64,000 bases of DNA from Bdellovibrionota bacterium (GTDB taxonomy: Bacteria; Bdellovibrionota_C; UBA2361; OMII01). Shown here piece after piece: positions 728 to 35,450 of this stretch (positions within the stretch are counted from its first letter, which is position 1; each line of letters starts with the position of its first letter). The stretch spans positions 5,511 through 69,510 of the forward strand of contig JBIIOE010000002.1 of NCBI GenBank assembly GCA_044337105.1. Reading direction: 5' to 3'. Below the pieces are notes generated by a model. It was not told the DNA's origin. It ran no database searches and saw nothing but the letters and a program-made list of their open reading frames with translations. The translations under genes were made by a program, and so were the position numbers.

Positions 728-1894
728 TTAGGGGGTAGGTTGGTGCGGAGGAAAGAGCGCCTTGAGCGCTGGAGGAGCAACGATAGAAGTAACAAGGGAC
801 ATCAGAATAATTACTCCATAGACGGTTTGAGAGAAAACGCCTGCTTGCAGACCGAGGCTCGCAACGATGATGCCTACCTCACCGCGCGGGACCATGCCAA
901 TGCCGATGATCAGGCTGGGTCTTCTTCCGAGGGACATCGCCGCCAGGCTACAGGGTATCATTTTCGAGAGGATAGCGAGAAGGGATACGACGAGGATTGT
1001 GACGATCGTGCCGGGGTCGTGCAGTAGAGAGAGATCGACGTGCGCTCCCGTCAACACGAAAAAGTAGGGGGCAAGGAAAGAGGTGATAGGTCGTATGCTC
1101 TCCTCTAAACCTAATCGGTGCTTGGATTCCGCGGAAACCATCCCCGCAAGAAACGCGCCTATGATCGCTGCCAGTCCGATGTGATGAGCGGCCATAGCGA
1201 GAGCGAGACAAGCGCTCAAGGACAGGGCGACTGGGGAGAAGTACCGAGTAGGAAGATCGAGAAGGCCCGAGAAGCTCTGCATCATGCGAGTGCCAACGAA
1301 GGCTATAAGTATTACAAATCCGAGAGCTTGCAGTATCACAACAAGTAGTCCAGCAACATCAACGCTTCCTTGCGCATGCAGGGAGACTACCGCTCCGAGG
1401 ATGAGCATTGCCAGAATGTCGTCTATCACCGCAGCGCCGAGAATCGCGTGGCTCTCGACGGTGTTCAGGGCCCCGAGCTCTCGCAGAACCTGGGCAGTGA
1501 TCCCCGCAGAGGTAGCTACGAACGCTGCTCCGATGAAGAGGGCATTGGGGGCTTCATGCCCTGCGCGCGATGCCCAAAAGCTTCCCACGAGGAAGGGTAC
1601 GAAGACACCAGCCATTCCAACATACGCAGCGATCTTCCCTACACTTTTGAGATCAGCTAGGCGAGTCTCGAGTCCGACCGAAAAGAGTAAAAGTATGGCT
1701 CCGAGTTCCGAAAGAATTGCTACCGACTCGTTGACCTCGATGAGGCTAAGGGCGAAAGGCCCTACCGCGCAACCTGCGGCGATCTCACCGACTACTGTAG
1801 GGATGCGCAGGGCGCGAGCGAACAGAGAGCCGATCTGTGCTGCAACAAAGACGATGAAAAGAGTCGGCAGTACATTGGGGGGTGGAGCGATCAT
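728..1894 (-). CDS. cation:proton antiporter (CPA1/CPA2 Na+/H+ exchanger family)
   Basis: About 11 TM segments. The N-terminus 'NVLPTLFIVFVAAQIGSLFARALRIPTVVGEIAAGCAVGP' and 'GMVPRGEVGIIVA' are typical of KefB/NapA-type exchangers. The ORF-track start (1963) was trimmed to the internal Met 'MIAPPP'. Confidence 0.8.
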   Translation of the reverse strand: MIAPPPNVLPTLFIVFVAAQIGSLFARALRIPTVVGEIAAGCAVGPFALSLIEVNESVAILSELGAILLLFSVGLETRLADLKSVGKIAAYVGMAGVFVPFLVGSFWASRAGHEAPNALFIGAAFVATSAGITAQVLRELGALNTVESHAILGAAVIDDILAMLILGAVVSLHAQGSVDVAGLLVVILQALGFVILIAFVGTRMMQSFSGLLDLPTRYFSPVALSLSACLALAMAAHHIGLAAIIGAFLAGMVSAESKHRLGLEESIRPITSFLAPYFFVLTGAHVDLSLLHDPGTIVTILVVSLLAILSKMIPCSLAAMSLGRRPSLIIGIGMVPRGEVGIIVASLGLQAGVFSQTVYGVIILMSLVTSIVAPPALKALFPPHQPTP

Positions 1895-2117
1895 GTATGT
1901 GGATCGTCGAAGGCAACGGTCCACAGTAGAAAGAGTCGCTGGATAGAGCGACGACCAGTACAACAGAGGCGTATGCTACGCATCAACACGAGCTGCTACC
2001 GTGGTTTCGACGTGAATAGAAAGAGCGAGCATCCGGTTAAGGGTGCTCGCTCGTAGAACGCTCACTGAAACTCTTGTCCCTCGTAGAGAGAGAGAGAGCG
2101 AGGTTTTCGCCTAATGC

Positions 2118-2930
2118 TCAGTGATACGGCTGTTGTGAAGGGCCCACAGTCGAGACCGGTATCTCTTGGAAAACTTGCCGTCTCCATGCAACGTATCCGC
2201 CTAATCCAGCAGCAGCCAACCCGAGAAGCATGGAAAACAGCGCGCCCCATGCCGCTTTGCTCGCGACTTCTGCACTTTGCTGCACTCTCTCCGGGGTTAC
2301 CCGCTGACGTAGGTTCTCCACAGCTTGGCGAGCTTTGTCTTGCGCTTCGCGGGCGGCGTCTCGTGCTTGCTGGTCTATAGGAGCGCCCTCGCTCTGTCCG
2401 GGCTGCCCTGCCTCCGGTCGGGTGGCCTGTCCCGCAAGAGGCGCCGCTGCCTCGATTCCTGTCTGCACAACCCCACCCAATGTTCTGAACAACGATCCGA
2501 CACCGCCAGCGATTACGTACAACAGTAAGGGGATCGTTACCACCCACACCATTACACCCTGGAGGATGCGTGTGAAGTTATCGATAATTGGAGTGGTTCG
2601 TCCCGAGACCCATCCGCCCAGGAAGAAAGATATGAGAGCTACGGCAGCTCCCCATATACCAGCTCCTATGCCGAACGAGCGAAGGGTGTCGTTCGGATCC
2701 ACACTCGAAAAGCCGATTGCGAGTCCAAGGACACTCAGAACTGCTGTCGCCGACAGAACAGTAAAGACTCCTGCCAAAACTGGTCCCCATCGAACCAAGT
2801 CAGGGGATGTGCCCTGAGCGAAGCCTACATCATATCGTTCACTCCCGTGAAACCCTTCAACTCGAGAGAGATTGCCTCCCGATGGATTTTCTTTGTAAAT
2901 ATCTGCGGCCATAAGGTGCCTCCGTGACAC
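2118..2930 (-). CDS. hypothetical integral membrane protein
   Basis: Multiple hydrophobic helices and an Ala/Gln-rich, probably cytoplasmic, C-terminal tail. I recognise no family signature. Confidence 0.4.
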   Translation of the reverse strand: MSRRHLMAADIYKENPSGGNLSRVEGFHGSERYDVGFAQGTSPDLVRWGPVLAGVFTVLSATAVLSVLGLAIGFSSVDPNDTLRSFGIGAGIWGAAVALISFFLGGWVSGRTTPIIDNFTRILQGVMVWVVTIPLLLYVIAGGVGSLFRTLGGVVQTGIEAAAPLAGQATRPEAGQPGQSEGAPIDQQARDAAREAQDKARQAVENLRQRVTPERVQQSAEVASKAAWGALFSMLLGLAAAGLGGYVAWRRQVFQEIPVSTVGPSQQPYH

Positions 2931-3221
2931 TTGTAAAATTCATGGGCATTCGCCCACATCTCCGCTACGACCCAACTTTCCCCATATGGTGCTGGAGCCC
3001 GCATGCCGTACGACATGCGGGTGGATAACTCTTTGTGGTGCGAGCAGAAGACCTTAGACGTCGGAGCCATCTCAGCACGAGCATGCAGTGCGTGCTTTGA
3101 TCAATGACTCTTCGTGGCTAAGGCTCTCTGCGAGCACGCCGAGTTAGGAATAGTATAGAGAATCCTGCTGCTCTGTGAGCTGATCAGAATTAGAGAGAGG
3201 ATCCCCTTATCGATGACTCTT

Positions 3222-3677
3222 CTAATGAGTTAGCGATGATGGTGAGGACCAGCCCCGCTGCTGACCAGCGTTGCGTGTCACCTGCTGTGCGTAGTCGCGG
3301 GGGGCTTTCTCGACGAGATCGGCCTGAGACACGATGCCACAACAGATTCCTCGATTGTCCACTACAGGAACTCGGCGCACTACGTTCTCGTCCATGACTC
3401 GCAAGCATTCCTGTACAGACATCTCTGGATTAACGCTGGCAACAGGGGATGACATGCAGTCTCGAACCATGACCGCGGCAGGGGAGAGGTTTCGTGCAAC
3501 GACGCGACAGCAGATGTCGCGGTCCGTAACCACTCCTACCAATCGGCGACTCTGCTGGTCTTCGACGACAGGGATCTGTCCGCAATCGTTCTCTACCATC
3601 AGCTTGGCAGCCTCGACGACGTTGGTGTTCGGCGTACAGCATACCGGGTCTTTCGACATTATCTCTCGAACATTCAT
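3222..3677 (-). CDS. CBS-domain pair protein
   Basis: Two CBS repeats ('VMSKDPVCCTP...AAKLM', 'VPVVDNRGICCGIVSQADL'). Confidence 0.8.
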   Translation of the reverse strand: MNVREIMSKDPVCCTPNTNVVEAAKLMVENDCGQIPVVEDQQSRRLVGVVTDRDICCRVVARNLSPAAVMVRDCMSSPVASVNPEMSVQECLRVMDENVVRRVPVVDNRGICCGIVSQADLVEKAPRDYAQQVTRNAGQQRGWSSPSSLTH

Positions 3678-3770
3678 AGCTATCTCTCCTCGAACTATGT
3701 GCTATCTCGCTAGTCGCGTAAGTGAGAGCTGGTCTTACAACGCGAAAGAGGTGGTCAGCACTGATTCGGG

Positions 3771-4850
3771 TCAGGGATGCCCTGTATCGGGGTGTTCTTG
3801 CTTGCTCAGTGCCTTTGCGATAATTCGAGCCGCTTGGGCGTGCCCGACGGTGCTAAGATGCCTGTCAGCCTCTGAATAGAGGGGTTCGCCGCGCCATGCG
3901 ACGAATTCAGGATATAGATCCACGACCTCAAGACCCTCTTCGCGGCAGATCGTGAGAGCAGCTTCGTCGAGATGTGAGCGAGGGGTGTTCTGCATATCGT
4001 TGTGGGATGGGATGACGATAGCGCTAGGACGGATGGAGTGCTCGAGGGCGACCCTCTTGAATTCCCTCAACACGAGCTTCATCAGTATCTGAGCTTTTCG
4101 ATATTCCTGCTCGTCGGGAATATCGTCGGTGGTCTTGTCGTTGAACAGGATTTCGGAGATGTGTTCCTCCGTTTCCTCCGGTAGAAAGTGGCCGGTCGTG
4201 ATGAGCCGTAACGCCATCGGGAGTCTGAAGGTCGGAATGATCTGTTCGATCGGATTTGGGTGTAGTGGCCTCAAGCTACCATCGTCGGCGTTGATCTCGA
4301 AGAGGTGGTTCTTGAGCAGGTCATTGAAATCGTTTGACGGGTACAGCGAAAAAAGTGCTTGAGACGGCGCAAGCGGCAATCCATACCGTTTGAAAGCTAG
4401 CAGCGACTGATCAGGTCCGTAGCCTTGTACCCCCATGTTGTAGACTTCTCGACCAGTCAGGAGCTTTTCGAGCTGCTGGGGGAACGTGTCCCTCGGCTCT
4501 ACAATCAAACCCATCGGAAATGAATCCCCCGAGACGGTGATCAGGTGCCTTCCCGAGTGTGTTGGCTTCTCGTCACGAAAGCCATCGGCGTTGATGTGAT
4601 GGGTTTCGTTGGGGATCATACGGAAGAGAGTTTCCGTATCGAGTGTAAAGAAGGTGATACCCTTAGTGCCGCCAACGCCTTTGCCTACGAGTTGGTAGGT
4701 AGGCCACACCCCCCATACCTTCATTGAGAGTTCGGAAAACAGAACACACAGTGTTGCTATAGCACACCACTTCGCTACGAATTTAAAGAGAGCCAGCATA
4801 CATCCTGATGTACCATCCCAACGAGCTCTACAGAAGGAGCGAAATGTCAT
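3771..4850 (-). CDS. SGNH/GDSL-type hydrolase (AlgX/AlgJ-like esterase/acyltransferase) with N-terminal membrane anchor
   Basis: GDS block 'ITVSGDSF' near the N-terminus and a C-terminal 'DRHLSTVGH' (DxxH catalytic block). Hydrophobic N-terminus. Confidence 0.6.
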   Translation of the reverse strand: MTFRSFCRARWDGTSGCMLALFKFVAKWCAIATLCVLFSELSMKVWGVWPTYQLVGKGVGGTKGITFFTLDTETLFRMIPNETHHINADGFRDEKPTHSGRHLITVSGDSFPMGLIVEPRDTFPQQLEKLLTGREVYNMGVQGYGPDQSLLAFKRYGLPLAPSQALFSLYPSNDFNDLLKNHLFEINADDGSLRPLHPNPIEQIIPTFRLPMALRLITTGHFLPEETEEHISEILFNDKTTDDIPDEQEYRKAQILMKLVLREFKRVALEHSIRPSAIVIPSHNDMQNTPRSHLDEAALTICREEGLEVVDLYPEFVAWRGEPLYSEADRHLSTVGHAQAARIIAKALSKQEHPDTGHP

Positions 4851-5235
4851 TTTGTAGAATCATACGACACAACGTGCAAATTACGCCGGCCTCTACAGGA
4901 ATTAAGTGCCCGACAATATAAGAATCGCGCAAAGAATTGGGAGTATCACATCTTTCGTCCTACCATGATCTCCATATTTTCCGCAAAAAATGTCTAGCCC
5001 GCCATGAGCCCTCTCCTTACGGTTGAGCTGTGGCTCCTGAGGTCGGCAGATGATGCAACGCGATGTGTTGCGGTGCGCACGCTACTGGCGTCCGAAGAGG
5101 AGCTCGGTTCGGTTGTGAAGATAGGTTTTCGTGCAGTACATGCACCCTCTGTTCGAGGGTGCAGGTTTTAGTTAGCTCCCCACGACGTTCCTTCGCAGTC
5201 GAACGTTTCTCTTTCAACAGGGGAGCGATTCGAGA

Positions 5236-7725
5236 GTGTGTATGAGGTTGTATCTAAAGACGGTCGTGGCACTTTGCCTCGTCACGACCTGCCTTCTTCG
5301 ATCCACGGGTAGGGCGGCAGCACAGGCCGCGTCCTTTACTGTAATGCGGGTGACATCTCTTGCCGATTCCGGAGCAGGAACTCTGCGGGAGTGTGTCTCG
5401 AAGGGATTCCCACGGGTGTGTGTGTTCGAGGTCTCCGGTCGTATCAAATTGTCGAGTGATCTCGTGATTACTCAGCCTGATCTCATAATTGCGGGGCAAA
5501 CCGCTCCGTCGCCCGGAATACTCGTCAGTAATGCCGGAATTAGGGTGAAGAGTCACCATGTTCGCATAGAGCACATCGCCGTTCGCGCGGGAGATGACAA
5601 ATCCGGGCCGGACCCTCGAAGTCGCGACAGTATGAGTATCCAGGGGTCATCGGCTTACGAGGTTAAGCTCAAGAACCTCTCGATATCGTGGGGAGTGGAC
5701 GAGAACTTTTCGACCTACCAGGGTATAAAGAACGTAACGGTAGAGAACTCCATTATCTCTGAGGGGTTGATGTACTCGTTGCATCCGAAGGGGCACCACA
5801 GTATGGGAGCCCTGGTCGGCGAGACAGCACGAAGTGTCATCTTCAGGAACAATCTCTTCGCGGTCAACAATGACCGCAACATACGTTGGAAGTTTGATAC
5901 GACGGGGGCCATGATCAACAACGTCATATACGGATGGGGGGGCACGTCATCGTGGAATACGACGAATCTTTCCGACACCGACGGGGCGAACAAAGCCAAC
6001 GTTTTGGATATCATCGGAAACAGGTATATTCCGGGGCCTCACGGTCTGCAGACGGCGTACGCAGTGTATTCATCCAAAGTCCCGAGCAATTCTAAGATAT
6101 ATCTCGCGGACAATATCGCTTCACGACTCACGAACGTACCGTCTTCCTTTTTGGTGAAGACTCCCAACTTCGGCATCTCGGATGTGATGCCGGTCGCGGA
6201 TGCGTATGAGTATGTTTTGGCCAACGCAGGTAGTCGGCCATGGGATCGCAACGCCGATGACATTCGTGTGATCTCGGGAGTCAAAGCTCGAACGCTGAAG
6301 CTCCGCAACTCTGTAGGCGCTTGGCCTGCATATGAGGTTAACCGCAAGCCGGTGGAGATACCGGATGGAGCGGTGGGGCTCGATCGAATCAACTCAGTCC
6401 TCGCATCGTGCGAAAAATCTTCTGGTTCGACAGTTGAAGCAACGTCGACACCTCCCGTAGTGGCGACAGCCACTCCGCGACCACCGAGCGCTCCGACGCA
6501 GGTCGCTACACCGGTTGTGGCACCGGTAGCAACGCTAGTGCCCTCAACGCCTCCGACAGGGAGTCCGAGCGCACCAGGGATATCTCGCGGCCCTTCTGCG
6601 GCGCGAGCTTATACGGTGGTCAAGGTTACATCGCTTGCGGATGCAGGACAGGGAACGCTGCGGGACTGCGTGGAGAAGCCGTTTCCCCGAGTGTGCGTGT
6701 TCGAGGTTTCTGGTGGTATCAAACTGACCCGGAATCTAGTCGTCGACCAACCCAACCTCGTAGTAGCGGGACAGACAGCGCCTTCTCCAGGGATTGTGTT
6801 GACTAATGCGGGAATTGTGGTCAGGAGTCACGACGTACGAGTCGAGCACCTGAGTGTGCGTAGCGGAGATGCTCCTGATGGGCCAGCGCCGGCGTCTCGG
6901 CGCAGCATCAGCGTCCGGGGCTCTTTAGCGCACGACGTAAGGTTTAAGAACCTCTCAGTTTCGTGGGCAGTGGCTGAGAATATACAGACGGCAGGGCCAG
7001 TAAAGAATGTGGTGTTCGAGAACTGTATCATCTCAGAGGCTCTACACCGTTCGATACATCCCAAAGGAGCTCACAGCATGGGAGTTTCGGTAAATCAGAG
7101 GGCTCGAGGGGTGCGCTTTGTCGGGAATCTTTTGGCTGCTAATGGAGACCGTAACATTAGCTGGCAGTACGATACTCGTGGCGAGATGATCAACAACGTC
7201 ATCTACGGATGGGGAAATGCTAGTTCGCGGAATACGACCAATATCTCCGATCCGAGCAATGCGGGTAGAGCGACAGTGCTGGATGCCATCGGAAATGTCT
7301 TTCTTGCGGGTCCGCAAGGGATGAGTAGGCCATACGCCTTCTATTCGGCAAGCACTCCGAGGGGATCAAAGATCTTCCTGAGTGACAACATCGCGCCACG
7401 ACTTACCAACATAGGGTCAAAGTATCGGGTCAGGCGGCGAAGCTTTGCGGGAGCGACCGCAGCGCCGGCATCGACAACTTTGGAGTCGGTGCTCCGAAGT
7501 GCCGGAGCTCGTCCGTGGGATCGCAATCCGGATGACGCTAGGGTGATAGAAGGGGTCAGGTCACGCTCTCTGCGAATACGCAATAGGGTAGGGGCATGGC
7601 CTCTGTATGCCAGAAACGGGCGCAGCATCCAGATGGCAGAGGCGTTGATTACGCAGGAGCGTCTCGATCGGGCGCTACCGCTCTTCGAAGTGCAAATGGG
7701 TGCTCCCACGTTGCCCGCTTTTTGA
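5236..7725 (+). CDS. secreted protein with two tandem pectate-lyase-like right-handed beta-helix domains joined by a Pro/Thr-rich linker
   Basis: Signal peptide. Each half (aa ~30-400 and ~455-829) carries 'DSMSIQGSS..VKLKNLSISWGVDEN' (compare PL1 'D..I.....NVWIDH.S.S..D') and 'DRNIRWKFD..GAMINNVIYGWG' (PL1 'R.P..R.G...NN.Y'). The two halves are about 70% identical. Confidence 0.6.
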   Translation: MCMRLYLKTVVALCLVTTCLLRSTGRAAAQAASFTVMRVTSLADSGAGTLRECVSKGFPRVCVFEVSGRIKLSSDLVITQPDLIIAGQTAPSPGILVSNAGIRVKSHHVRIEHIAVRAGDDKSGPDPRSRDSMSIQGSSAYEVKLKNLSISWGVDENFSTYQGIKNVTVENSIISEGLMYSLHPKGHHSMGALVGETARSVIFRNNLFAVNNDRNIRWKFDTTGAMINNVIYGWGGTSSWNTTNLSDTDGANKANVLDIIGNRYIPGPHGLQTAYAVYSSKVPSNSKIYLADNIASRLTNVPSSFLVKTPNFGISDVMPVADAYEYVLANAGSRPWDRNADDIRVISGVKARTLKLRNSVGAWPAYEVNRKPVEIPDGAVGLDRINSVLASCEKSSGSTVEATSTPPVVATATPRPPSAPTQVATPVVAPVATLVPSTPPTGSPSAPGISRGPSAARAYTVVKVTSLADAGQGTLRDCVEKPFPRVCVFEVSGGIKLTRNLVVDQPNLVVAGQTAPSPGIVLTNAGIVVRSHDVRVEHLSVRSGDAPDGPAPASRRSISVRGSLAHDVRFKNLSVSWAVAENIQTAGPVKNVVFENCIISEALHRSIHPKGAHSMGVSVNQRARGVRFVGNLLAANGDRNISWQYDTRGEMINNVIYGWGNASSRNTTNISDPSNAGRATVLDAIGNVFLAGPQGMSRPYAFYSASTPRGSKIFLSDNIAPRLTNIGSKYRVRRRSFAGATAAPASTTLESVLRSAGARPWDRNPDDARVIEGVRSRSLRIRNRVGAWPLYARNGRSIQMAEALITQERLDRALPLFEVQMGAPTLPAF

Positions 7726-7901
7726 TATGGTGATCCACGAGCGGTACCGCTGAGACGTCAGCGGTTTCCGTCGCCCTCTGCGTACCGTAAAGGTGCGCAG
7801 GGGGCTTTTTTTGCTCGCTGCGTGTGTGAGGCCGCAGTAGGAGCGGCCACTCTGCGGCAGGAGCGGGTGGGTCGCGCGATGTAGGAAATTGAGGAACAGA
7901 T

Positions 7902-9902
7902 ATGACTAGACGTATGACAACGTGCTGTGCGCTTGCCAGCCTGCTCGTGATCGCGCTCTACTTCCGCAGCATGGTCGGTCTGTTTTGGGACGAAGGGGAG
8001 CACCTTCACCCTGACGAGCGTTTTCTCACGATGGTGACCGAACGCATCGCATTGCCATCCTCAATCGGGGAGTATTTCAACTCTCAGACCTCGCCGCTGA
8101 GTCCATACAACAATGATTTCGGCTTTTTTGTGTATGGCACCCTTCCCATCTTTGTCACCAAGTACGTAGCGGCAGTCTTGGGATTGGCAGACTACGGACA
8201 TGTACACATCGTCGGCAGAGTGATGAATTCGGTGTTCGAACTCTTGAGCCTGTTCACGCTGTATCTGTTTGGCAGCCGAGTTTTCAATCGAGCAACAGGG
8301 TTAACGGCTGCGCTTCTGTTTGCGATCGTTCCTCAAAACATCCAGCTCTCGCACTTCTACGGAGTAGAGAGTGCCGCAGCCTTCTTTGTGCTGCTGTCGT
8401 TCTTGCTGTCCACAGAGGTACTGCTACCTCGCGAGGCACCCAGACCAGTGAGTAAACGGGTCAAGATAGGGACCGCATGCGTAGTCGTCCTGGGGTCTCT
8501 CGCACTCGTCATGAGTGGGCTACCGTCTTTTGTAGCGTTCCAATTAGTAGCTCTGGTTGTAGGTGTCGGGGCATGCCTGGCATTCCATGCGAGCTGTGGA
8601 ATCCTCCTTCGATCGGCCCTTTTGGGTCTTACCGTGGGATGCGCCTTGGCGTGCAAAATCAGCACGGTGTACGCGATCCCCTTTATATTTCTTCCACTCG
8701 CGGTTGAATTCCTCCGTAGCTGCCTCAGGAAGATAGCCTCGATTGGTTCAGCCAGAGATGAATTCGGAGAGCTTCCGCGCCCCTCGTATCTGGTTCTGGG
8801 GGGAATCATGGCGGTGTTCATAGCGGCCCTCGGATTTCGTGTGTTTCAACCGTACGCTTTTGAAGGTACCTCGATACTCTCGCTCAAGCTTGCCCCGAAG
8901 TTCCTTTCCAACATGTCTGAAGTAAAGGGGCTGATGAAAGGCGCGGATTTTCCGCCTTCTGTCTATTGGGTCGATCAACCGGCATTTTTGTTCCACTGGC
9001 GCAACATGCTGTGGTGGCAGATGGGGCTCGGCTGGTTCGTAGCTGCATGGGGTGGCTTGTTATTTGTCGTGTGGAGGCTTCTGAAGGCTGCCGATGTCGT
9101 GACGTTGCCGTGGGTTGCTTGGACGGTTTTTTGGTTCTCATTTAACGCGATCAGCTTCGCCAAGGCTGGACGCTACCTTTCGCTCATTTATCCATTCTTT
9201 GCGCTTGCCGGTGGTTGTCTACTTGTGGCGGTGACTCGAGCTGTCAATCAATCGGTGTTCGTGGGAGGGGCGGGGCGTATGCATGCGCGTGTCGTAGCGC
9301 TTGTGCCTGCTAGTATCGTGGTTGTCAGTGCGCTGATATGGGCGATTGCGGTAACGAATATCTATCGCCGTCCGCATACTCGTATCGCTGCTTCACGCTG
9401 GATCTATGCGAATATTCCGTGTGGTTCCACCCTGGCAAATGAGCATTGGGACGACGGATTGCCACTCCGCGTGGATGGAAAGGACGGCTTCGGAGCTTGT
9501 TACAAAGGTCTCGAGTTCGAGCACTATCACTGGGATGATTCAAAGAAATTAGCCTCGACGTTGAGTAAGCTCCAGCAGACTGATTACATCATACTCTCGA
9601 GTAATCGCTTGTCCGGCTCTATTCCTCGTATGCCGCGTCGGTTCCCTTTCACCACTGAGTACTACAGGATGTTGTTTTCGGGTGAATTGGGATTCGCACT
9701 GGAGAAGATCTTCACGTCGTATCCGTCCTTTGGTCCATTTGAGCTGAAAGACGACACGTTCGAGGAGCTGCTACTAAACTACGATCATCCCAAGGTTCTC
9801 ATCTTCAAGAAGACCCCTAACTTCGATTTCGAGTACGTATCGAAGAAGCTCCGAGCGTTCCCGCCGCATGTGCCTCTCACGTTGTTGGACCAGCAGACCT
9901 AG
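7902..9902 (+). CDS. GT-C fold membrane glycosyltransferase (ArnT/PMT-like, GT39/GT83-type)
   Basis: About 12-13 TM helices and a first-loop acidic motif 'WDEGEHLHPDERF'. 666 aa, typical of undecaprenyl/dolichyl-phosphate-sugar dependent transferases. Confidence 0.55.
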   Translation: MTRRMTTCCALASLLVIALYFRSMVGLFWDEGEHLHPDERFLTMVTERIALPSSIGEYFNSQTSPLSPYNNDFGFFVYGTLPIFVTKYVAAVLGLADYGHVHIVGRVMNSVFELLSLFTLYLFGSRVFNRATGLTAALLFAIVPQNIQLSHFYGVESAAAFFVLLSFLLSTEVLLPREAPRPVSKRVKIGTACVVVLGSLALVMSGLPSFVAFQLVALVVGVGACLAFHASCGILLRSALLGLTVGCALACKISTVYAIPFIFLPLAVEFLRSCLRKIASIGSARDEFGELPRPSYLVLGGIMAVFIAALGFRVFQPYAFEGTSILSLKLAPKFLSNMSEVKGLMKGADFPPSVYWVDQPAFLFHWRNMLWWQMGLGWFVAAWGGLLFVVWRLLKAADVVTLPWVAWTVFWFSFNAISFAKAGRYLSLIYPFFALAGGCLLVAVTRAVNQSVFVGGAGRMHARVVALVPASIVVVSALIWAIAVTNIYRRPHTRIAASRWIYANIPCGSTLANEHWDDGLPLRVDGKDGFGACYKGLEFEHYHWDDSKKLASTLSKLQQTDYIILSSNRLSGSIPRMPRRFPFTTEYYRMLFSGELGFALEKIFTSYPSFGPFELKDDTFEELLLNYDHPKVLIFKKTPNFDFEYVSKKLRAFPPHVPLTLLDQQT

Positions 9903-10133
9903 CGCGCAAACGCTGTTTGTTGCGAGGTGGTAGGTTCCTCTTAGGCATTGCATCGGCTAAATCCCTTGCGGGGGAGGCATTTTGCTGTGGCCGTTTGCGG
10001 GGTATTTCAGACGCAAGTAGGGGTGGCTCCTCCCCAACGATTGCAACCAAAACAAAAAAGAGGCAGAAAGTGCGTTGCGTTATTGCCGAGCTCGCTTTGT
10101 TGCGAACTCGGTATGTCTTTGGGAGAAAAATTC

Positions 10134-10958
10134 ATGGTACGAAAAATTTCGTTGGGGATGCTATGCGCACTTGTAGTGTGTGTTTCCCCGTTTTCGGCGC
10201 AGGCCCAGGAACTGTCACAGAACCTGAGAGACCTGTCGGTCAAAGCAACGCCGGCCCCAGCTCCTGTCTCGTGTGAGCCCCCGGCCAAGGATCCGTCCGT
10301 ATGGGACAAGAGCCTCTTGTTCGGGTTGAACTACACCGAAGGTAACACCAAGACCACCAACATCAACTTGGGTGGAGTTGCCGCGCGTGATTACGAGAAC
10401 AACGCATGGAGATTCCAGGCGGACTACAACTACGGTAGTGCTGCGAATAGTGCGAACGATCCCAAAGAGGAGAACAAGAACAACATTCGCGCTCTGGCCG
10501 ACTACCGACGCGTTCTCGATAATCGCTGGTTCGCGGGAGCGGGGGCTGCGTTTGCGCACGATGAGATCGCAGACTTGAAGTATCGAGCTGTTCTCAGTCC
10601 ATCTCTGGGTGCATACGTACTGCGGGATGATGATGTGAAGTTCAGCTTGGAGGCTGGTCCTTCATACGTCTGGGAGAAGCTCGGTGACGAGGACGACAAC
10701 TTCGCTGCTGCGCGCATTGCAAATCGCTTCGAGTGGGAGTTCAGCGAAACTTCGAAATTGTTCGAATACACCGAGTATTTGGTGAGCTTCGAGGATGCTG
10801 ATCAGTACCTTATCAACGCCGAGGTCGGCTTGGAGACGGCACTGAATTCCTTCATGAGCCTCGTTATTTCCGTGAAGGACTACTACATAAACCAACCTGC
10901 TGAAGATCGAGTTCCAAACGACGTGATCACGATTACAGCACTCAAGGTTACCTTGTAA
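10134..10958 (+). CDS. DUF481 family outer-membrane beta-barrel protein (YdiY-like)
   Basis: Signal peptide 'MVRKISLGMLCALVVCVSPFSAQA' and alternating amphipathic beta-strands. 'GLNYTEGNTKTTN...WRFQADYNYG' resembles DUF481. The start was chosen at an internal ATG. Confidence 0.6.
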   Translation: MVRKISLGMLCALVVCVSPFSAQAQELSQNLRDLSVKATPAPAPVSCEPPAKDPSVWDKSLLFGLNYTEGNTKTTNINLGGVAARDYENNAWRFQADYNYGSAANSANDPKEENKNNIRALADYRRVLDNRWFAGAGAAFAHDEIADLKYRAVLSPSLGAYVLRDDDVKFSLEAGPSYVWEKLGDEDDNFAAARIANRFEWEFSETSKLFEYTEYLVSFEDADQYLINAEVGLETALNSFMSLVISVKDYYINQPAEDRVPNDVITITALKVTL

Positions 10959-10981
10959 TAGAATTAGGGGAGACAAAAATC

Positions 10982-11401
10982 ATGGCTATCGAAACGGTTG
11001 GTAAGAAGGCTTTTGGGCTGGTCGACGAGTTCAAGGCGTTCGCCTTCAAGGGCAATGTCGTTGATCTCGCCGTGGGTGTGATCATCGGAGCTGCATTCGG
11101 AAAGATTGTGGATTCGTTGGTGAAGAACATCATAATGCCGACTGTTTCGGTGCTGCTCCCCGGTGACCAGAGCTACGTTGGATGGAAGTTCATCTTCAAC
11201 GGGAAAGAGATACCGTATGGGCTCTTCCTGGGGGAGGTTGTGAACTTCATCATCGTTGCTCTGGCTTTATTCCTCTTCATTGTAAAGTTCCTCGGTTGGA
11301 TGATGCGAAGTAAGGCGGTCGAGACTGCGGCGCCCCCGGCTTTGACTAAGGATCAGGAGCTACTGGTAGAGATTCGCGACCTTCTGCAGAAGCGAACCTA
11401 G
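10982..11401 (+). CDS. mscL: large-conductance mechanosensitive channel MscL
   Basis: 'FKAFAFKGNVVDLAVGVIIGAAFGKIVDSLVKNIIMP' is the canonical MscL TM1 signature. Length 139 aa. Confidence 0.9.
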   Translation: MAIETVGKKAFGLVDEFKAFAFKGNVVDLAVGVIIGAAFGKIVDSLVKNIIMPTVSVLLPGDQSYVGWKFIFNGKEIPYGLFLGEVVNFIIVALALFLFIVKFLGWMMRSKAVETAAPPALTKDQELLVEIRDLLQKRT

Positions 11402-11413
11402 TAGTAGGACCCA

Positions 11414-11452
11414 AAGATCGTCATCGCTAAGCGATGACGATCTTCTCGGTTT
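11414..11452 (+). terminator. rho-independent terminator-like hairpin after mscL
   Basis: Perfect 13-14 bp stem AAGATCGTCATCGC/GCGATGACGATCTT with a TAA loop, followed by a T-rich stretch CTCGGTTTCG. Confidence 0.6.
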
Positions 11453-11491
11453 CGAGGTCCCTTCGAATATTGGTGAAGGGGAGCTAAGCGC

Positions 11492-12877
11492 GTGCTCAAT
11501 AGGTATTCCCTCATGTGTCGTCTACCTCTCTTGTCCTTGCTCGGAGCGATTGCCCTGGGTGTGTTCTGTGCTTGTGTGCCGATTGCGCCAGCCTTTGCGC
11601 AGAGTAAACAGGATGAAGGATTCGAAACTGCCCCAGTTCTTGTTGCATCAAAGGTGCTTCCTCTCAAGCTTCTCAAGGGTGCTCATTACTCAATCGACGA
11701 GCGAGTGGTAAATGACGGATATTTCAACACCTATACCGTTCGAACGTCCTTCGGCATATTTAAACCGGCGGGGCGCCCGTTGCTCGAGATTCGCATCAAG
11801 GAGATTCAGGCCATAGCTGAACTCGACAAGCTCGCGAGCACGCAGGTTTTCGTCGATGCCGCAGCGAGCACCGGAAAGAGTGTGTTGCTGGCGCCGGTGC
11901 GGGCAGCCGAGAAGGTGGTCGATACCGTGTCGGATCCGGACAAGATGATTGACACGGTCAAGGCTGTTCCTCGGGGGGCGCAGCGGCTCTTTTCATGGGC
12001 GGCACGCCAGGTTGAGAGTGCCTACGAGGCGGCTGGCGATCTCGTTTCATCTGACAAGGATAAGAGCGACAAAGGTGCGGCCGACGAAAAGGGTTTCAGT
12101 ACTACAGAGGTGCTGAAGCAAGGTAAGAATTTCGGTCTGGGATTCATAGGATACAATAAACGCGAGCGTGAGTGGTTTCGTAAACTTCAGGTGAGTCCAT
12201 ATACCTCGAATCATGTTTTGAAAGACGAAGTTGTGCGTGTTGCGGCGATCGAAACTGCGGTAGGTGTCGCCTTCAAGTTCGTTCCCTCTATCTCCTTTCT
12301 GAGTGAGCTCAACACTTTTAATACGTGGTATGGTAGGGCCGAGAAGTTGGCTCTCTACGAGGAGCCTGACAGTATCCGCAACAAAACGCGCGCGGACCTT
12401 GTGTCACTCGGAGTATCCGAGGAGCTCATCAAAGGATTCCTAGCTCATAAAGCGTACACACCGTGGTCACAAAGGCTCATCAGCTCTTCATTGGTATCGA
12501 TCGGCCCCTCTGTAAAAGGCCATGCAAATTTCGTGCGTGCAGCTCTCGAGGCTAATGACGAAGCTACTGCACTGTATTTCGTCGCAGTAGCGGAGCAGCT
12601 CGCAGAGACGCATCAAGCGCGCCCGCTCGACCGCATCGTTGCATCCCTCTGTCTCCCGGCGGGTGTGTTACGGGATGGAACGCTCTTCCTGCCGCTGCAG
12701 GTCGATTACTTGGTATGGACCAAGGAAGTTGCCAAGGTCTTTACCGACTTCTCCAAGAGGGTTGTAGTGCCTGAGCGGTGTAAAAAGGCGGAGGTACACA
12801 TCATTGGAGATTTAAGCCCACGCGCCAAGATGGAGCTGGCTCGGATAGGGGTAGTGCTCACGGTTGAGCGATCCTAG
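11492..12877 (+). CDS. hypothetical secreted protein or lipoprotein
   Basis: Signal peptide with a Cys near the cleavage region. No recognisable domain. Confidence 0.4.
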   Translation: MLNRYSLMCRLPLLSLLGAIALGVFCACVPIAPAFAQSKQDEGFETAPVLVASKVLPLKLLKGAHYSIDERVVNDGYFNTYTVRTSFGIFKPAGRPLLEIRIKEIQAIAELDKLASTQVFVDAAASTGKSVLLAPVRAAEKVVDTVSDPDKMIDTVKAVPRGAQRLFSWAARQVESAYEAAGDLVSSDKDKSDKGAADEKGFSTTEVLKQGKNFGLGFIGYNKREREWFRKLQVSPYTSNHVLKDEVVRVAAIETAVGVAFKFVPSISFLSELNTFNTWYGRAEKLALYEEPDSIRNKTRADLVSLGVSEELIKGFLAHKAYTPWSQRLISSSLVSIGPSVKGHANFVRAALEANDEATALYFVAVAEQLAETHQARPLDRIVASLCLPAGVLRDGTLFLPLQVDYLVWTKEVAKVFTDFSKRVVVPERCKKAEVHIIGDLSPRAKMELARIGVVLTVERS

Positions 12878-12937
12878 TTTCCCGTACATCCGTGGCTAAA
12901 AATGGTGTTCTTGAGGACGGGAATAATCTACTCGACC

Positions 12938-12985
12938 AAGAAGGTCGTTGTCGCTTGTCGATAACGACCTTCTTAAGGTCTCGTT
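12938..12985. terminator. bidirectional terminator hairpin between convergent genes
   Basis: 12-bp stem AAGAAGGTCGTT/AACGACCTTCTT with a 13-nt loop, lying between the stop of 11492..12877 (+) and the stop of 12993..13262 (-). Confidence 0.5.
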
Positions 12986-12992
12986 TCTGATC

Positions 12993-13262
12993 TTACCGGC
13001 CCGCTGATTCGCCACCCGGCTGATTGCGAGATGCCTTCTGACTGCGAGCTTCCCCACCGAGCCGGCCGATCGCAGCCATGTGTGCGCGATCTCGACTAAC
13101 TGCTTCGCCACCCTTTCTGCCCGCTTCACGGGCCTCTTCTGGTGTGAATTCATGGGCATGCCCTCGCTGATGGGCTATCTTGCCGCCTTTGCTGGCTATC
13201 TGGCGTTGCTTCTCTGCATCCATGGACGCAAAGCCGCGACCTGATTTCTTGTTATTTGCCAT
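12993..13262 (-). CDS. KGG-repeat general stress protein (YciG/Con-10 family)
   Basis: Repeated 'KGG' blocks ('ASKGGKIAHQRGH...EEAREAGRKGGEA'). Confidence 0.8.
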   Translation of the reverse strand: MANNKKSGRGFASMDAEKQRQIASKGGKIAHQRGHAHEFTPEEAREAGRKGGEAVSRDRAHMAAIGRLGGEARSQKASRNQPGGESAGR

Positions 13263-13433
13263 ATCACCTCCGTATACGACGGTTGCTCAATAGCTTTAGA
13301 CCGTAACAGAGGGGCATGTTTCGCCCGTATGATACGGGTTCGGTGGTATGGACATTGAGAGTGTCCGAAGTCGAAAAAGAACGGACTCGAGAAGAGGCGA
13401 GAGATCGGTGAATACGCTCGTCATCGTACTAAC

Positions 13434-13502
13434 CTATAGTGATGTTGAGCAAAAGCCTTGCCGGTTTTACTGGTACGGACTTTTGCACATCGCTATAGCG
13501 TT
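13434..13502. repeat. hairpin repeat, family 2, copy 2 (hairpin-1 module only)
   Basis: CTATAGTGATGT...ACATCGCTATAG stem with loop GAGCAAAAGCCTTGCCGGTTTTACTGGTACGGACTTTTGC. Near-identical to 21059..21122. Confidence 0.7.
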
Positions 13503-13675
13503 CTCTCGCTTGCCCAGGGGGTAGTCGTTGGCTGAGGAGTCCTTATCACAGAGAGTCCGGAGAGTGGGCGGAAATGCCCCGATTCCGGCAATGGTGCTTG
13601 GTCCAATCTGGAACCGAGATGCTCCGGGAAAAAGATCTCACAAGGAGAATGGCGAGAGCAGCGAGGAGATGTTGA

Positions 13676-15169
13676 TCAACGACGCTTGCTACCGCCAGTC
13701 AGAGAGCCGAAGATCCCACGCAGGATCGACTTGCCTAACTGATTTCCGACCGAGCGGGCAGTGCTCACGACGATCGCCTCGAGTGGGCTCTGACGCGATC
13801 GCTTTCCGCCGCTTCCAGTGAAGATAGAGGAGAATATCGAACCCGACGATGCTTGCTCGGCTTTCTCCTTTGACGCAGTCTGCTCCGCAGCCTCGACCTT
13901 CTTCGTGAGGATTTCGTAGGCCGATTCACGGTCGATACTCTTCTCGTACACGCCATGGACGACCGACTGTTTGATTATCTCAGCGCGCTCCTCAGGTGTA
14001 ATTGGCCCCAGCCTGCTCGACGGTGGAGCTATGAGAGCCCGCTGAGCGATGGTCGGGGTTCCGTGCTCGTCGAGCAGTGATACGACCGCCTCACCAATCG
14101 CAAGCTCCCCGATCGCTTCCTGGAGGTTAGTCGACCCGTCTGAGCGAAAGGTCTCTGCGGTTGCTCTGAGCGCCTTCTGGTCCTTTGCCGTGAAGGCTCT
14201 CAGCGCGTGTTGGACCCGATTGCCAAGCTGAGCCAGGACCGAATCAGCTATGTCGAGAGGGCTTTGGGAGACGAAGTACACTCCAACACCCTTGGAACGA
14301 ATGAGCCGGACAACCTGCTCAATTTTGTCGAGAAGGGCTTTAGGGGCCTCGTCGAAGAGGAGGTGTGCTTCGTCGAAAAAGAACACCATCTTCGGTTTTG
14401 CAACGTCTCCGATCTCTGGGAGTCGTTCAAAAAGCTCGGAGAGGAGCCACAGCAAAAAGGTCGAATAGATGGCAGGAGACATCATCAGCTTATCCGCACT
14501 GAGGATGTTGATGACGCCGCGCCCCTTGTGATCGGTTTGGATGAGATCATCGATGTTGAGGGAGGGCTCACCAAAGAACTTGTCACCACCAGCCTCCTGG
14601 AGTGAAAGCAGGGCGCGCTGAATCGCTCCAACACTGGCAGGTGAGACGTTGCCATATTGCAACGTGAAGTTCTTGGCGTTCTCCCCCACATGTACCAGCA
14701 TCGCCTGCAAATCTTTGAGGTCGAGCAGCAACATGCCTGCGTCGTCTGCAGCCTTGAATACTAGGTTGAGTACGCCCGACTGCGTGTCGTTTAAGTTCAG
14801 TAGCCTACCAAGTAGGAAAGGTCCGACCTCGGAGATGGTTGTTCGAACCGGATGCCCCTGTTCACCGAAAACATCCCAGAAGACGACCGGGAAGGACGAT
14901 GGCGCCCAGTCCTCGATGCCGAGAGACGAAAGTCTTTGTGACAGCTTGTCATTCATTGCGCCGGGCTGGCTCAGGCCTGCGAGGTCTCCCTTCACATCTG
15001 CCATGAATACAGGAACCCCCATGCGGCTGAAGCCCTCGGCGAGGACTCGTAACGTGACGGTCTTACCGGTGCCTGTGGCGCCAGCGATAAGTCCGTGGCG
15101 GTTCGCCATACCAGGGACGAGCTGTACCGCTGAATTCGCGCCTTTGCCTACGAGAAGATCGTTCTCCAT
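13676..15169 (-). CDS. HerA-like/DUF853 P-loop ATPase (YjgR family)
   Basis: Walker A 'IAGATGTGKTV', Walker B 'MVFFFDEAHLLF', and an N-terminus 'LLVGKG...MANRHGLIAGATGTGKT' like E. coli YjgR. About 500 aa. Confidence 0.75.
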   Translation of the reverse strand: MENDLLVGKGANSAVQLVPGMANRHGLIAGATGTGKTVTLRVLAEGFSRMGVPVFMADVKGDLAGLSQPGAMNDKLSQRLSSLGIEDWAPSSFPVVFWDVFGEQGHPVRTTISEVGPFLLGRLLNLNDTQSGVLNLVFKAADDAGMLLLDLKDLQAMLVHVGENAKNFTLQYGNVSPASVGAIQRALLSLQEAGGDKFFGEPSLNIDDLIQTDHKGRGVINILSADKLMMSPAIYSTFLLWLLSELFERLPEIGDVAKPKMVFFFDEAHLLFDEAPKALLDKIEQVVRLIRSKGVGVYFVSQSPLDIADSVLAQLGNRVQHALRAFTAKDQKALRATAETFRSDGSTNLQEAIGELAIGEAVVSLLDEHGTPTIAQRALIAPPSSRLGPITPEERAEIIKQSVVHGVYEKSIDRESAYEILTKKVEAAEQTASKEKAEQASSGSIFSSIFTGSGGKRSRQSPLEAIVVSTARSVGNQLGKSILRGIFGSLTGGSKRR

Positions 15170-15418
15170 GTTCTGTTCCTTTGCGGGATTTTCCGCTGCT
15201 TCGTGGACGGTATAGCCGCAAATCGCGTCAGAGGCCAGTGGTGTATATAGTCAGGTTTCCTGATTCCCCACATATCTATGAGATTCCCCTATCTGCGGTC
15301 GGGGGATCTCTGAATTACAGCAATCAAAGCGTAAGCTGGTCGGATTTTTGAGTCCCTAGTGTGCAGGCGGGTTTGGATCCGACCGAGTTTTACAACACAG
15401 AGTTGAGGGAAGAGGCTG

Positions 15419-16582
15419 ATGAACGCTGCTGAAAAGATACACGAGGATGCTACAACCTTCTCGGAGACCTCCTGGCTACAAGCCCGGAACTATGCTGATG
15501 CGCTTGGTCGACCACCTGCCTCGGTAGAGTCTCTGATTAGGAAATTGTTGGTGGATGCAGAGACGGACCCGTGGGGGCTTAGTGAAGTTGGGCGATACTT
15601 TCTGGGTAGATTCTTCGCAAGCCGTTCATTTCAGTCACCGTACTTCCATGCCATCTCCTTGTTCAAAAAAGAGCGGCTTCAACCCGAGGATGAACCGTTT
15701 ATAACCAGGGATTTCCTTGAATCGTTCTCTGGCGCAGAGCATGCGGTATTGACTGGGCTCATCTTCTTACATCGCATGGCGCGTCGTGGAGTGGACCGTG
15801 ATCTCATAGCGGGTGTAGACGAGTGGCTACAGCGCGGCGTGAACCTTGGCTGGTACATCGGGAAGGCGTTGAAACCCGTTGGGACGGAGGCGGGGATGCT
15901 GGCGGGAAGCCTGCGCTGGATAGGGCTGCTTCCCTTCGCAAAACGCGATCCTCAGGGGCTCAAAAAGTACATGAAGCACCTCAAATCTCAGAACTTAGCA
16001 ACCACGGATCCAAACTACGAGTTCGATCAGTGGTATTGTACGTCGCTTCAAGTGGGATTGATCCTCCTCCAACGGCTGGGATTCGAAATGAGCAAGCTGG
16101 TACCGCTGATGCGTGCCATGACTACCAACTCCCCGATTCCATCGCAGGATCCTACCGAGCGTGCGTATAGAGTTGTCGAGGTGTGGACGCGCTACTTGTT
16201 AGAGGTGCGTAAGGCGCCCGCAGTTCCCCTGCAGCCCACGTACTACCTGAGCCAAGAGAAAATGGACCAGATTTCAGAGCAAGTTTTAATGAACCAAGAG
16301 TCGCGTATCTTTAATTGGCTCTCTGCCCATCATTCGTTCCTAACGCCAGACACCGCCCCACAACTCTTCTGTGGGCATTTGTCTGATGACTCTGCTCAGG
16401 CGGGAGCGGACGGGGAATCAGGCGAGCTGGAAGAGGGCTCTACAGAGGTGCTAGTTTTGCAAGACGAGCAGATACCGCCGTTGGCAAGCCAGGTCACAGG
16501 GCTCTCAGATGATGCCGAGTGCGTCGCCTTGGCGATGCCCGAGGGGCTTACAGAAGAGGAGGCGGCTATCCTCGACGAATAA
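15419..16582 (+). CDS. hypothetical protein with acidic C-terminal tail
   Basis: 387-aa soluble ORF with good codon usage. No family recognised. Confidence 0.4.
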   Translation: MNAAEKIHEDATTFSETSWLQARNYADALGRPPASVESLIRKLLVDAETDPWGLSEVGRYFLGRFFASRSFQSPYFHAISLFKKERLQPEDEPFITRDFLESFSGAEHAVLTGLIFLHRMARRGVDRDLIAGVDEWLQRGVNLGWYIGKALKPVGTEAGMLAGSLRWIGLLPFAKRDPQGLKKYMKHLKSQNLATTDPNYEFDQWYCTSLQVGLILLQRLGFEMSKLVPLMRAMTTNSPIPSQDPTERAYRVVEVWTRYLLEVRKAPAVPLQPTYYLSQEKMDQISEQVLMNQESRIFNWLSAHHSFLTPDTAPQLFCGHLSDDSAQAGADGESGELEEGSTEVLVLQDEQIPPLASQVTGLSDDAECVALAMPEGLTEEEAAILDE

Positions 16583-16614
16583 GAGGATGGCTTCGCGAGT
16601 GGTTCGACCGCGAT

Positions 16615-35387: not shown

Positions 35388-35450
35388 ATCCAGGGAAGCG
35401 AGGCACAACCTACCCGTAGCAGGAAAGGGTTTTGCCTCGCTCACCTAGGT
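35388..35450 (+). repeat. family-1 inverted-repeat element, minimal hairpin derivative, copy D
   Basis: CCAGGGAAGCGAGGCACAACCTACCCGTAGCAGGAAAGGGTTTTGCCTCGCTCACCTAGG lies between the convergent stops of 34823..35383 and mltA. The two ends pair directly. Confidence 0.7.

Follow-up and report, generated by a model that had tools for sequence, protein, structure and literature searches.

A two-domain homologue of PL1 subfamily 2 lyases from a Bdellovibrionota bacterium, with an old internal duplication and an altered second active site

The DNA analysed here, a window of 64,000 nucleotides from the Bdellovibrionota assembly GCA_044337105.1 (contig JBIIOE010000002.1, positions 5,511 to 69,510 of the forward strand), contains at 5236..7725 of its forward strand an uninterrupted open reading frame (ORF) of 829 codons, counted from a GTG at 5236, whose product consists of two similar beta-helix domains joined by a linker. 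The protein is a homologue of the lyases of PL1 subfamily 2 (PL1_2) with a new architectural variant, fused tandem PL1_2 domains not being unique to it. The explanation favoured here, with moderate confidence, is that an ancient internal duplication gave rise to one active PL1 lyase domain and a constrained, probably non-catalytic partner domain. The N-terminal domain (5335..6429, aa 34-398) would be the active lyase, and the C-terminal domain (6604..7722, aa 457-829), a variant paralogue of a kind termed "C-type" below, is probably non-catalytic in this protein.

The two halves of the protein (aa 26-398 and 450-822, encoded at about 5335..6429 and 6604..7704) aligned end to end over 373 residues without a gap, with a BLASTP E value of 1e-151, which makes the internal repeat real and far beyond chance, as an initial annotation made from the DNA letters had proposed. 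Their identity in protein was 54-55% (54% by BLASTP over 373 aa, with 71% positives, and 205/374 in a second alignment), which does not confirm the value of about 70% given initially. The DNA of the halves in codon register was identical at 59% of all positions and at 39% of third codon positions, the same codon was used in both halves for 93 of the 205 identical residues, and synonymous sites between the halves are saturated. The longest exact run common to both was 17 nt, so that neither the clear relationship in DNA, in a sense relevant to recombination, nor the risk of deletion by homologous recombination that had been raised initially is supported. The linker between the domains (6430..6603, aa 399-456) was indeed Pro/Thr/Ala-rich, with P, T, A, S or V at 50 of the 60 residues of aa 397-456, and was modelled by AlphaFold as disordered, with a predicted local distance difference test (pLDDT) of 33-35, below 50. 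It resembles the linkers found between the catalytic and the binding modules of secreted carbohydrate-active enzymes, and in the orthologous loci L001 and L002 it is shorter by 8 aa through a deletion relative to the window protein.

The assignment to PL1 came from profile, sequence and structure comparisons. The PelZ model of NCBIfam (NF041900), the sole NCBIfam match of the protein, covered each half almost end to end, from model position 31 to 410 of 422 in the N half (E 7e-53) and from 44 to 401 in the C half (E 2e-48). The scores of 333.9 bits for the whole protein and of 180 and 165 bits for the halves were far below the equivalog cut-off of 840, which identifies a homologue of PelZ and not its equivalog or orthologue. 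A Pfam-A scan gave no family at E<=1 apart from two spurious short matches, leaving the pectate lyase models unmatched; the database homologues had no precomputed Pfam domain across this region, and those annotated at the source were all named "hypothetical protein" with one exception, a "pectate lyase". The best sequence match in the PDB was PfPL1 (9buj), found at E 8e-25 with the single sequence, at 6e-50 with the family profile and at 4e-17 with the C domain alone, followed in the profile search by VexL (6fi2, PL1_13) at E 3e-7, with no further PL1 structure at E<=0.01. PfPL1 is the first solved structure of PL1 subfamily 2, which includes PelZ and BT_4115/4116/4119 (PMC11229556).

The AlphaFold2 model, calculated with 55 homologues, had a mean pLDDT of 86 (mostly above 90 in the N domain) and consisted of two beta-helices of repeated short strands, each followed by helices, while a predicted template modelling score of 0.52 allowed no confident inter-domain packing. 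A Foldseek search of the PDB with this model placed 9buj first (E 1.6e-15, template modelling (TM) score 0.61), then VexL, Jun a 1 and many bacterial and fungal pectate and pectin lyases, with a probability of 1.0 for the PL1 structures 9buj, 6fi2, 1pxz, 7xks, 3zsc, 1jrg, 1idk, 1bn8 and others. The reading of both halves as pectate-lyase-like (PL1) right-handed parallel beta-helices, in line with the initial annotation, is well supported by the sequence comparisons and the model, and by sequence both halves are closest to PL1 subfamily 2 (the PelZ/PfPL1/BT_4115 type).

The active-site residues were located by alignment, the N-domain segment R214-N-I-R217 aligning gaplessly to R232-N-P-R235 of VexL and to R220-T-P-R223 of PfPL1. 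R214 of the N domain (codon 5875-5877), the putative base, and R639 of the C domain (7150-7152) both align to the base Arg of VexL (R232) and PfPL1 (R220), in a column occupied by Arg in 97% of the 190 aligned domains that were surveyed. The second Arg, which would hold the carboxylate and is equivalent to VexL R235, is R217 (5884-5886) in the N domain and is lost to S642 (7159-7161) in the C domain, and likewise the Lys present in the N domain as K219 (5890-5892) is lost to Q644 (7165-7167). The putative acidic positions of the groove are D131 (5626-5628) and D155-E156 (5698-5703) in the N domain, with R556 (6901-6903), A580 (6973-6975) and E581 in their place in the C domain. Elsewhere in PL1 the Bronsted base is also an Arg, R218 in PelC and R279 in BsPel, and the acidic groove residues of these two enzymes are Ca2+ ligands; from motif similarity, we tentatively take those of the present family to be equivalent to PelC D131/E166/D170. 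VexL is proposed to use R232 as its base, and its R235 forms a bidentate salt bridge to the carboxylate, the R232A, R232K and R235A variants being inactive and R235K keeping 5% of the activity (PMC6003464). For PfPL1, R220 was proposed to abstract the C5 proton and "binding" Ca2+ sites were proposed (PMC11229556), and VexL, as well as PfPL1 by proposal, catalyses without a catalytic metal (PMC6003464, PMC11229556).

A database search gave 680 relatives, and domains were mapped in the best 120 of them. The same two-domain layout was present in at least 73 of the best 120, forming clades A and B. Clade A (P0001-P0010, 51-100% identity) has the same pair of similar domains. In the clade B proteins (P0011-P0073, about 940-1030 aa, several of the entries being fragments truncated by contig ends), a first PL1-like domain of much greater divergence is followed by a long Pro/Thr-rich spacer and then by a close second domain, while a third group of relatives is made up of single-domain proteins of about 500 aa. 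The D131 column held Asp in 82/82 N-terminal domains of clades A and B and close single-domain relatives and in 31/32 outgroup domains, while in 76/76 C-type domains of both clades it held Arg or Lys. Among 140 further representative domains, taken from an exhaustive search with 7151 representatives at E<=1e-3, Arg occurred at this column only once. This was in P0224 (452 aa, pattern RRDERRK), the sole single-domain representative found with such an Arg, in which the charge swap may have arisen independently.

Apart from this swap, common to the whole C-type, the window protein had substitutions of its own. Its N domain showed the consensus residue at essentially every conserved column of the 190 domains. 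At the column of A580 the other 189 of the 190 domains have Asp, which makes D580A unique; within the clade, R642S and K644Q have no parallel. The orthologue P0002, at 85% identity, has none of these three changes, and each of the three independent copies of the window sequence has them all. Altogether the window-specific substitutions fell on highly conserved columns in three of 11 cases in the C domain and in none of 13 in the N domain. The base Arg was lost in six of ten clade-A C domains (replaced by Gln, Gly or Trp), while the clade-B C domains kept it, together with the full R..R.K pattern, in 66/66. Counted over the 56 columns in which 45 single-domain relatives show a conservation of at least 85%, clade-A N domains deviated at 1-3 columns (median 1; window protein 1) and clade-A C domains at 3-10 (median 5; window protein 5).

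Of the two motifs initially placed in both halves, D..I......N-[LV]-S-[IV]-SW..DEN is thus present in the N half only, the C half having R556 and SWAVAEN with A580, and R-N-I-[RS]-W includes the conserved R217 in the N half, its Ser alternative in the C half being the loss of that Arg. The residue-by-residue check proposed for each half gave an intact N domain, with one of the 56 conserved columns deviating, and a C domain with R556, A580, S642 and Q644 in which R639 was kept; a double catalytic domain is accordingly doubtful, several conserved active-site residues being gone from the second half. Both domains are nevertheless under purifying selection: the ratio of nonsynonymous to synonymous substitution rates (dN/dS, NG86 method), compared with L001 and L002, was 0.06 for the N domain and 0.11-0.13 for the C domain, these values being rough because dS, at about 1.1-1.5, was near saturation.

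The age of the duplication was estimated from a bootstrapped neighbour-joining tree of the domains (numpy implementation), in which the N domains of P0001-P0004 formed one clade and the C domains of P0001-P0005 and P0010 another, both with 100% support. This grouping of N with N and C with C makes the duplication older than the split of orthologues that are 66-85% identical. It probably also predates the split of orthologues with 51-55% identity, as suggested by the N domains of P0006-P0009, which joined the N clade at 68% bootstrap. The deep nodes had bootstrap values of 2-13%, and a possible single origin of the C-type is supported by only one strong synapomorphy, the change of Asp to Arg. 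A genome scan located the family in Bdellovibrionota metagenome-assembled genomes (MAGs) of lakes and rivers, where L001 and L002 were fully syntenic with the window over 728..17757 and clade-B genes occupied the same locus in L007 and L009, with the CBS-domain gene upstream and the genes for DUF481, MscL and a 461-aa protein (homologue of the ORF at 11492..12877) downstream. The recent origin of the duplication that had been assumed initially was rejected, given the saturated synonymous sites with 39% third-codon identity, the separate N and C clades, the layout shared by at least 73 of the best 120 relatives and the synteny. Gene conversion was considered as well, and only three columns were common to clade-A N and C domains but rare elsewhere, which is too few. 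An assembly artefact, which the initial annotation had also considered, was rejected on the recovery of an identical protein (P0001) in NCBI/ENA, JGI and Logan assemblies.

The first domain of clade B, seen in loci L003, L005 and L007-L014, formed a very long branch in the tree and had the insertions NLPTDGG and TGVNGTADGTT as well as a Cys-rich extension, KDCTTT.TCCVTNTGG..CPTPG, before a long (TP)n linker, and it kept the catalytic-type residues RD, DES and R..R.K. It may be an orthologue of the clade-A N domain that has evolved fast, or else may have replaced that domain. Other multi-domain proteins of the PL1_2 type arose independently, among them P0084/P0089, which represent a separate duplication in the tree and also carry dockerin, Laminin_G_3 and TSP3 domains of Pfam, and P0135 (1414 aa), P0199 and P0225. 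The first domain of P0135 had neither the Asp-Glu pair nor the base Arg (pattern RDGKQRS), and tandem domains with one degenerate copy may, judging from these sequences, be a recurrent theme. A fused double PL1_2 protein in Bacteroidota was rejected, the two domains hit by tblastn in L017 and L020 being adjacent separate genes. Two or three PL1_2 genes stand side by side as separate ORFs in L017, L019 and L020 (Alkalitalea, Natronoflexus, Marinilabiliaceae), for example at 9881..11320 and 11402..12769 of L017, an unfused counterpart of the fused architecture. The literature searched contained no discussion of PL1 enzymes in Bdellovibrionota.

According to the favoured explanation, the N module would be a working PL1_2-type enzyme cleaving an alpha-1,4-polyuronate by beta-elimination, with R214 abstracting the C5 proton, R217 holding the C6 carboxylate and D131, D155 and E156 helping to bind the substrate, possibly through Ca2+. 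The substrate, extrapolated from PL1_2 enzymes, would most probably be homogalacturonan or a pectin-like polymer. The change of Asp to Arg and the loss of D580, R642 and K644, in a domain still under purifying selection, make a non-catalytic or much altered partner the most likely role of the C module, which might bind, present or position the substrate by analogy with the second beta-helix of two-domain PL6 lyases, tethered to the N module by the flexible Pro/Thr-rich linker. In clade A, and in the window protein above all, the C domain no longer has the appearance of a competent catalyst.

Several points weigh against this explanation. The C domain of the window protein keeps not only the base Arg R639 but also E581, E601, H608 and K610, and these residues, together with the R..R.K of clade B, mean that the variant class could be an active, changed lyase that works independently of metal. 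The lyase activity of the clade members is itself a prediction, and the equivalence of residues was taken from sequence alignments with VexL and PfPL1. For PfPL1, the "Arg235" of the original paper (PMC11229556) is irreconcilable with the chain numbering and was read here as R223, which corresponds to VexL R235. As said above, the dN/dS values are rough, and the housekeeping neighbours of the gene, with no uronate-catabolism genes in the window, leave the pectin substrate as an extrapolation only.

Compatible with either view of the C domain is the possibility, entertained tentatively, that the substrate is an acidic polysaccharide of bacteria or algae, for instance the capsule of a prey cell, an extracellular polysaccharide or an algal sheath polyuronate, attacked as part of a predatory or scavenging lifestyle. 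The concentration of the family in Bdellovibrionota MAGs from lakes and rivers would fit, as would the 64-kb window, in which genes of pectin utilisation or uronate catabolism were not found, and there are precedents in VexL, a PL1 member specific for the bacterial Vi antigen (PMC6003464), and in PfPL1, which acts on marine apiogalacturonan (PMC11229556). The closest characterised relatives, PelZ, BT_4115/4116/4119 and PfPL1, however, all act on homogalacturonan-type polymers (PMC11229556), VexL is a far weaker match (E 3e-7 against 6e-50), and no experiment or genomic context links the family to any capsule locus.

The main rival concerns the C domain and appears rather improbable for the window protein. 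It holds both domains to be active and complementary, the N domain as a Ca2+-assisted enzyme of the pectate-lyase type and the C domain as a metal-independent one resembling pectin lyase or VexL, with Arg556 replacing the charge of Ca2+. Aspergillus pectin lyases A and B have such an Arg in place of a Ca2+ ligand of pectate lyases, and VexL and, by proposal, PfPL1 work without a catalytic metal. The Arg or Lys in all 76 C-type domains and the R..R.K kept in those of clade B would then reflect a functional groove under selection, in accordance with the purifying selection on the C domain and with the presence of R639. Against it, the equivalent of VexL R235, a residue whose change to Ala abolishes and to Lys nearly abolishes activity in that enzyme, is Ser642, the otherwise invariant Asp is Ala580, and the loss of the base Arg to W, Q or G in six of ten clade-A C domains is unexpected of an active lyase; the dual-enzyme scheme is more credible for clade B than for the window protein. 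A protein with no lyase domain at all, whose beta-helices would have a structural or adhesive role as in an adhesin or S-layer component, is highly improbable: the missing Pfam-A match and the "hypothetical protein" names would suit it, but the N domain has every residue conserved in PL1_2, the catalytic Arg pair among them, the full-length matches to the PelZ model and PfPL1 are strong, and the best fold matches are PL1 enzymes. A recent tandem duplication or an assembly artefact, leaving two equivalent catalytic copies at risk of recombinational collapse, can practically be dismissed, since the exact, gapless colinearity of the halves over 373 aa and the three columns common to clade-A N and C domains are outweighed by their divergence in DNA, the phylogeny, the layout in at least 73 database clusters and in syntenic MAG loci, and the identical sequence from three assembly sources.

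Taken further, the explanation by an active N domain and a non-catalytic partner leads to the tentative proposal that the C-type is a new class of lyase-derived beta-helix, an enzyme converted into a polyuronate-binding or substrate-feeding partner and, as such, the PL1 counterpart of the PL6 C-terminal domain. The C-type domain was encountered almost exclusively in second position in the tandem PL1_2 proteins of freshwater Bdellovibrionota, and, if the proposal is true, these presumed predators might use the tandem protein to breach acidic capsules or algal sheaths. The findings extend PL1 subfamily 2, with its single-domain characterised members and one solved structure, by a tandem architecture that is conserved in an uncultured phylum of presumed predators. 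They also provide a natural series in which a second beta-helix progressively loses catalytic residues under selection, a route to study how an enzyme turns into a binding or accessory module, and could reveal which acidic polysaccharides are attacked by freshwater Bdellovibrionota. The biological stakes are modest, since neither the fold nor the chemistry nor the idea of a duplicated domain that is inactive is new.

As to the gene itself, the likelier start is the ATG at 5242, two codons downstream of the GTG, which gives 827 codons (MRLYLKT...) and is used by the orthologues and by the identical database protein P0001; a Shine-Dalgarno-like GGGGAG lies at about 5220-5225, just upstream of the start. 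The protein is probably secreted, as initially annotated, by means of a Sec-type signal peptide read from its sequence (5236..5328, + strand, aa 1 to about 29-31), with a basic n-region (R4, K8), a hydrophobic core (VVALCLVTTCLL) and a cleavage motif AAA/AQA. AlphaFold modelled a helix at residues 2-26 of this region, followed by a stretch of low confidence. A conserved lipobox was not found in the signal peptide, its Cys being replaced by Ser in the orthologue of locus L002. An intrinsic-terminator-like hairpin with a T run (7773..7815, + strand; 14-bp stem with 10 G-C pairs) begins 48 nt past the stop codon; as a strong terminator (7773-7805) it points to a stand-alone, monocistronic gene. 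No promoter-like sigma-70 site was found in 4700..8100. The 385-nt intergenic region upstream (4851..5235) contains a 9-bp G+C-rich hairpin at 5141..5163 (+ strand) followed by a T-rich stretch, which could be the terminator of an unannotated transcript or a regulatory element.

The neighbours of the lyase gene encode an SGNH/AlgX-like protein, a membrane protein with weak GT-C/PMT_2 similarity, MscL, a HerA-like ATPase, valyl-tRNA synthetase, a CBS protein and DUF481, and genes of housekeeping and transport occupy the rest of the window. An operon or a polysaccharide utilisation locus was rejected as context, the gene having its own terminator and no functional link to its neighbours being found. 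Directly downstream, at 7902..9902 (+), lies the gene of a polytopic membrane protein of 666 aa that has the motif HPDERF early in its sequence and matches PMT_2 weakly (GT-C glycosyltransferase, E 0.002). This gene occurs in L001 and L002 of clade A and is missing from the syntenic clade-B loci L007 and L009, a pattern by which it looks inserted between the lyase gene and DUF481; the AT skew of -0.21 at 8001-10000 is probably due to its T-rich coding. The divergently transcribed gene at 3771..4850 (-), which adjoins the lyase gene also in L001 and L002, encodes a 359-aa protein with a weak AlgX/SGNH-hydrolase-like match in its C-terminal part (E 7e-7), and a link of this protein to acetylated polysaccharides is conceivable. 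Farther away, the gene of an MltA-type lytic transglycosylase (35441..36676, -) adjoins that of a reprolysin-like M12B zinc metallopeptidase (36993..38588, +), secreted hydrolases that fit a predatory or scavenging lifestyle. ORFs of 380-492 aa without a Pfam match at the thresholds used are located at 11492..12877, 15419..16582, 16615..17757, 41413..42891, 52529..53932 and 56549..57955, the first three of which were conserved in the syntenic MAG loci.

Among known systems, PfPL1 of Pseudoalteromonas fuliginea (9buj) comes closest to the window protein, with the same beta-helix core followed by a helical C-terminal adornment and with the motifs SW.VDE, HPKG.H and the R-x-x-R catalytic pair in common, at an identity of about 26%. 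PelZ from Dickeya dadantii and BT_4115/4116/4119 from Bacteroides thetaiotaomicron are further relatives of this subfamily. In contrast to the characterised PL1_2 enzymes, which are single-domain, the window protein consists of two fused domains with a Pro/Thr-rich linker and an altered active site in the second, and its gene is located outside any pectin-utilisation locus in a member of the Bdellovibrionota. VexL of Achromobacter denitrificans (6fi2, PL1 subfamily 13) is likewise a PL1 beta-helix, whose R232-N-P-R235 corresponds to R214-N-I-R217, and provides a precedent within PL1 for metal-free action on a bacterial polyuronate. The similarity is weak (E 3e-7, 14% identity in the Foldseek alignment), VexL has D171-R172 where the present family has D155-E156, and, unlike the window protein, it is single-domain, periplasmic and encoded within a capsule locus.

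The two-domain PL6 alginate lyases AlyGC, BcAlyPL6 and BoPL6 likewise have two parallel beta-helices on one chain. In these enzymes catalysis belongs to the N-terminal domain, and the C-terminal one, itself without catalytic function, binds the substrate and modulates the activity, as documented for BoPL6 (PMC12992946). PL6 lyases were among the Foldseek matches to the full model with low TM scores (0.2-0.28); they belong to another lyase family, with no sequence relationship to the window protein shown, and their domains pack tightly, a C-terminal loop entering the active site, whereas those of the window protein are split by a disordered linker of about 55-60 aa. The clade-B proteins share with the window protein a C-type second domain, with Arg at the D131 column, and a Pro/Thr-rich linker. 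Their first domain has about 34% identity to either half of the window protein, and in their C domains the Glu of the E156 column is changed to Ser, Ala, Gly or Thr and HSMG to RGNG, while R..R.K is complete.

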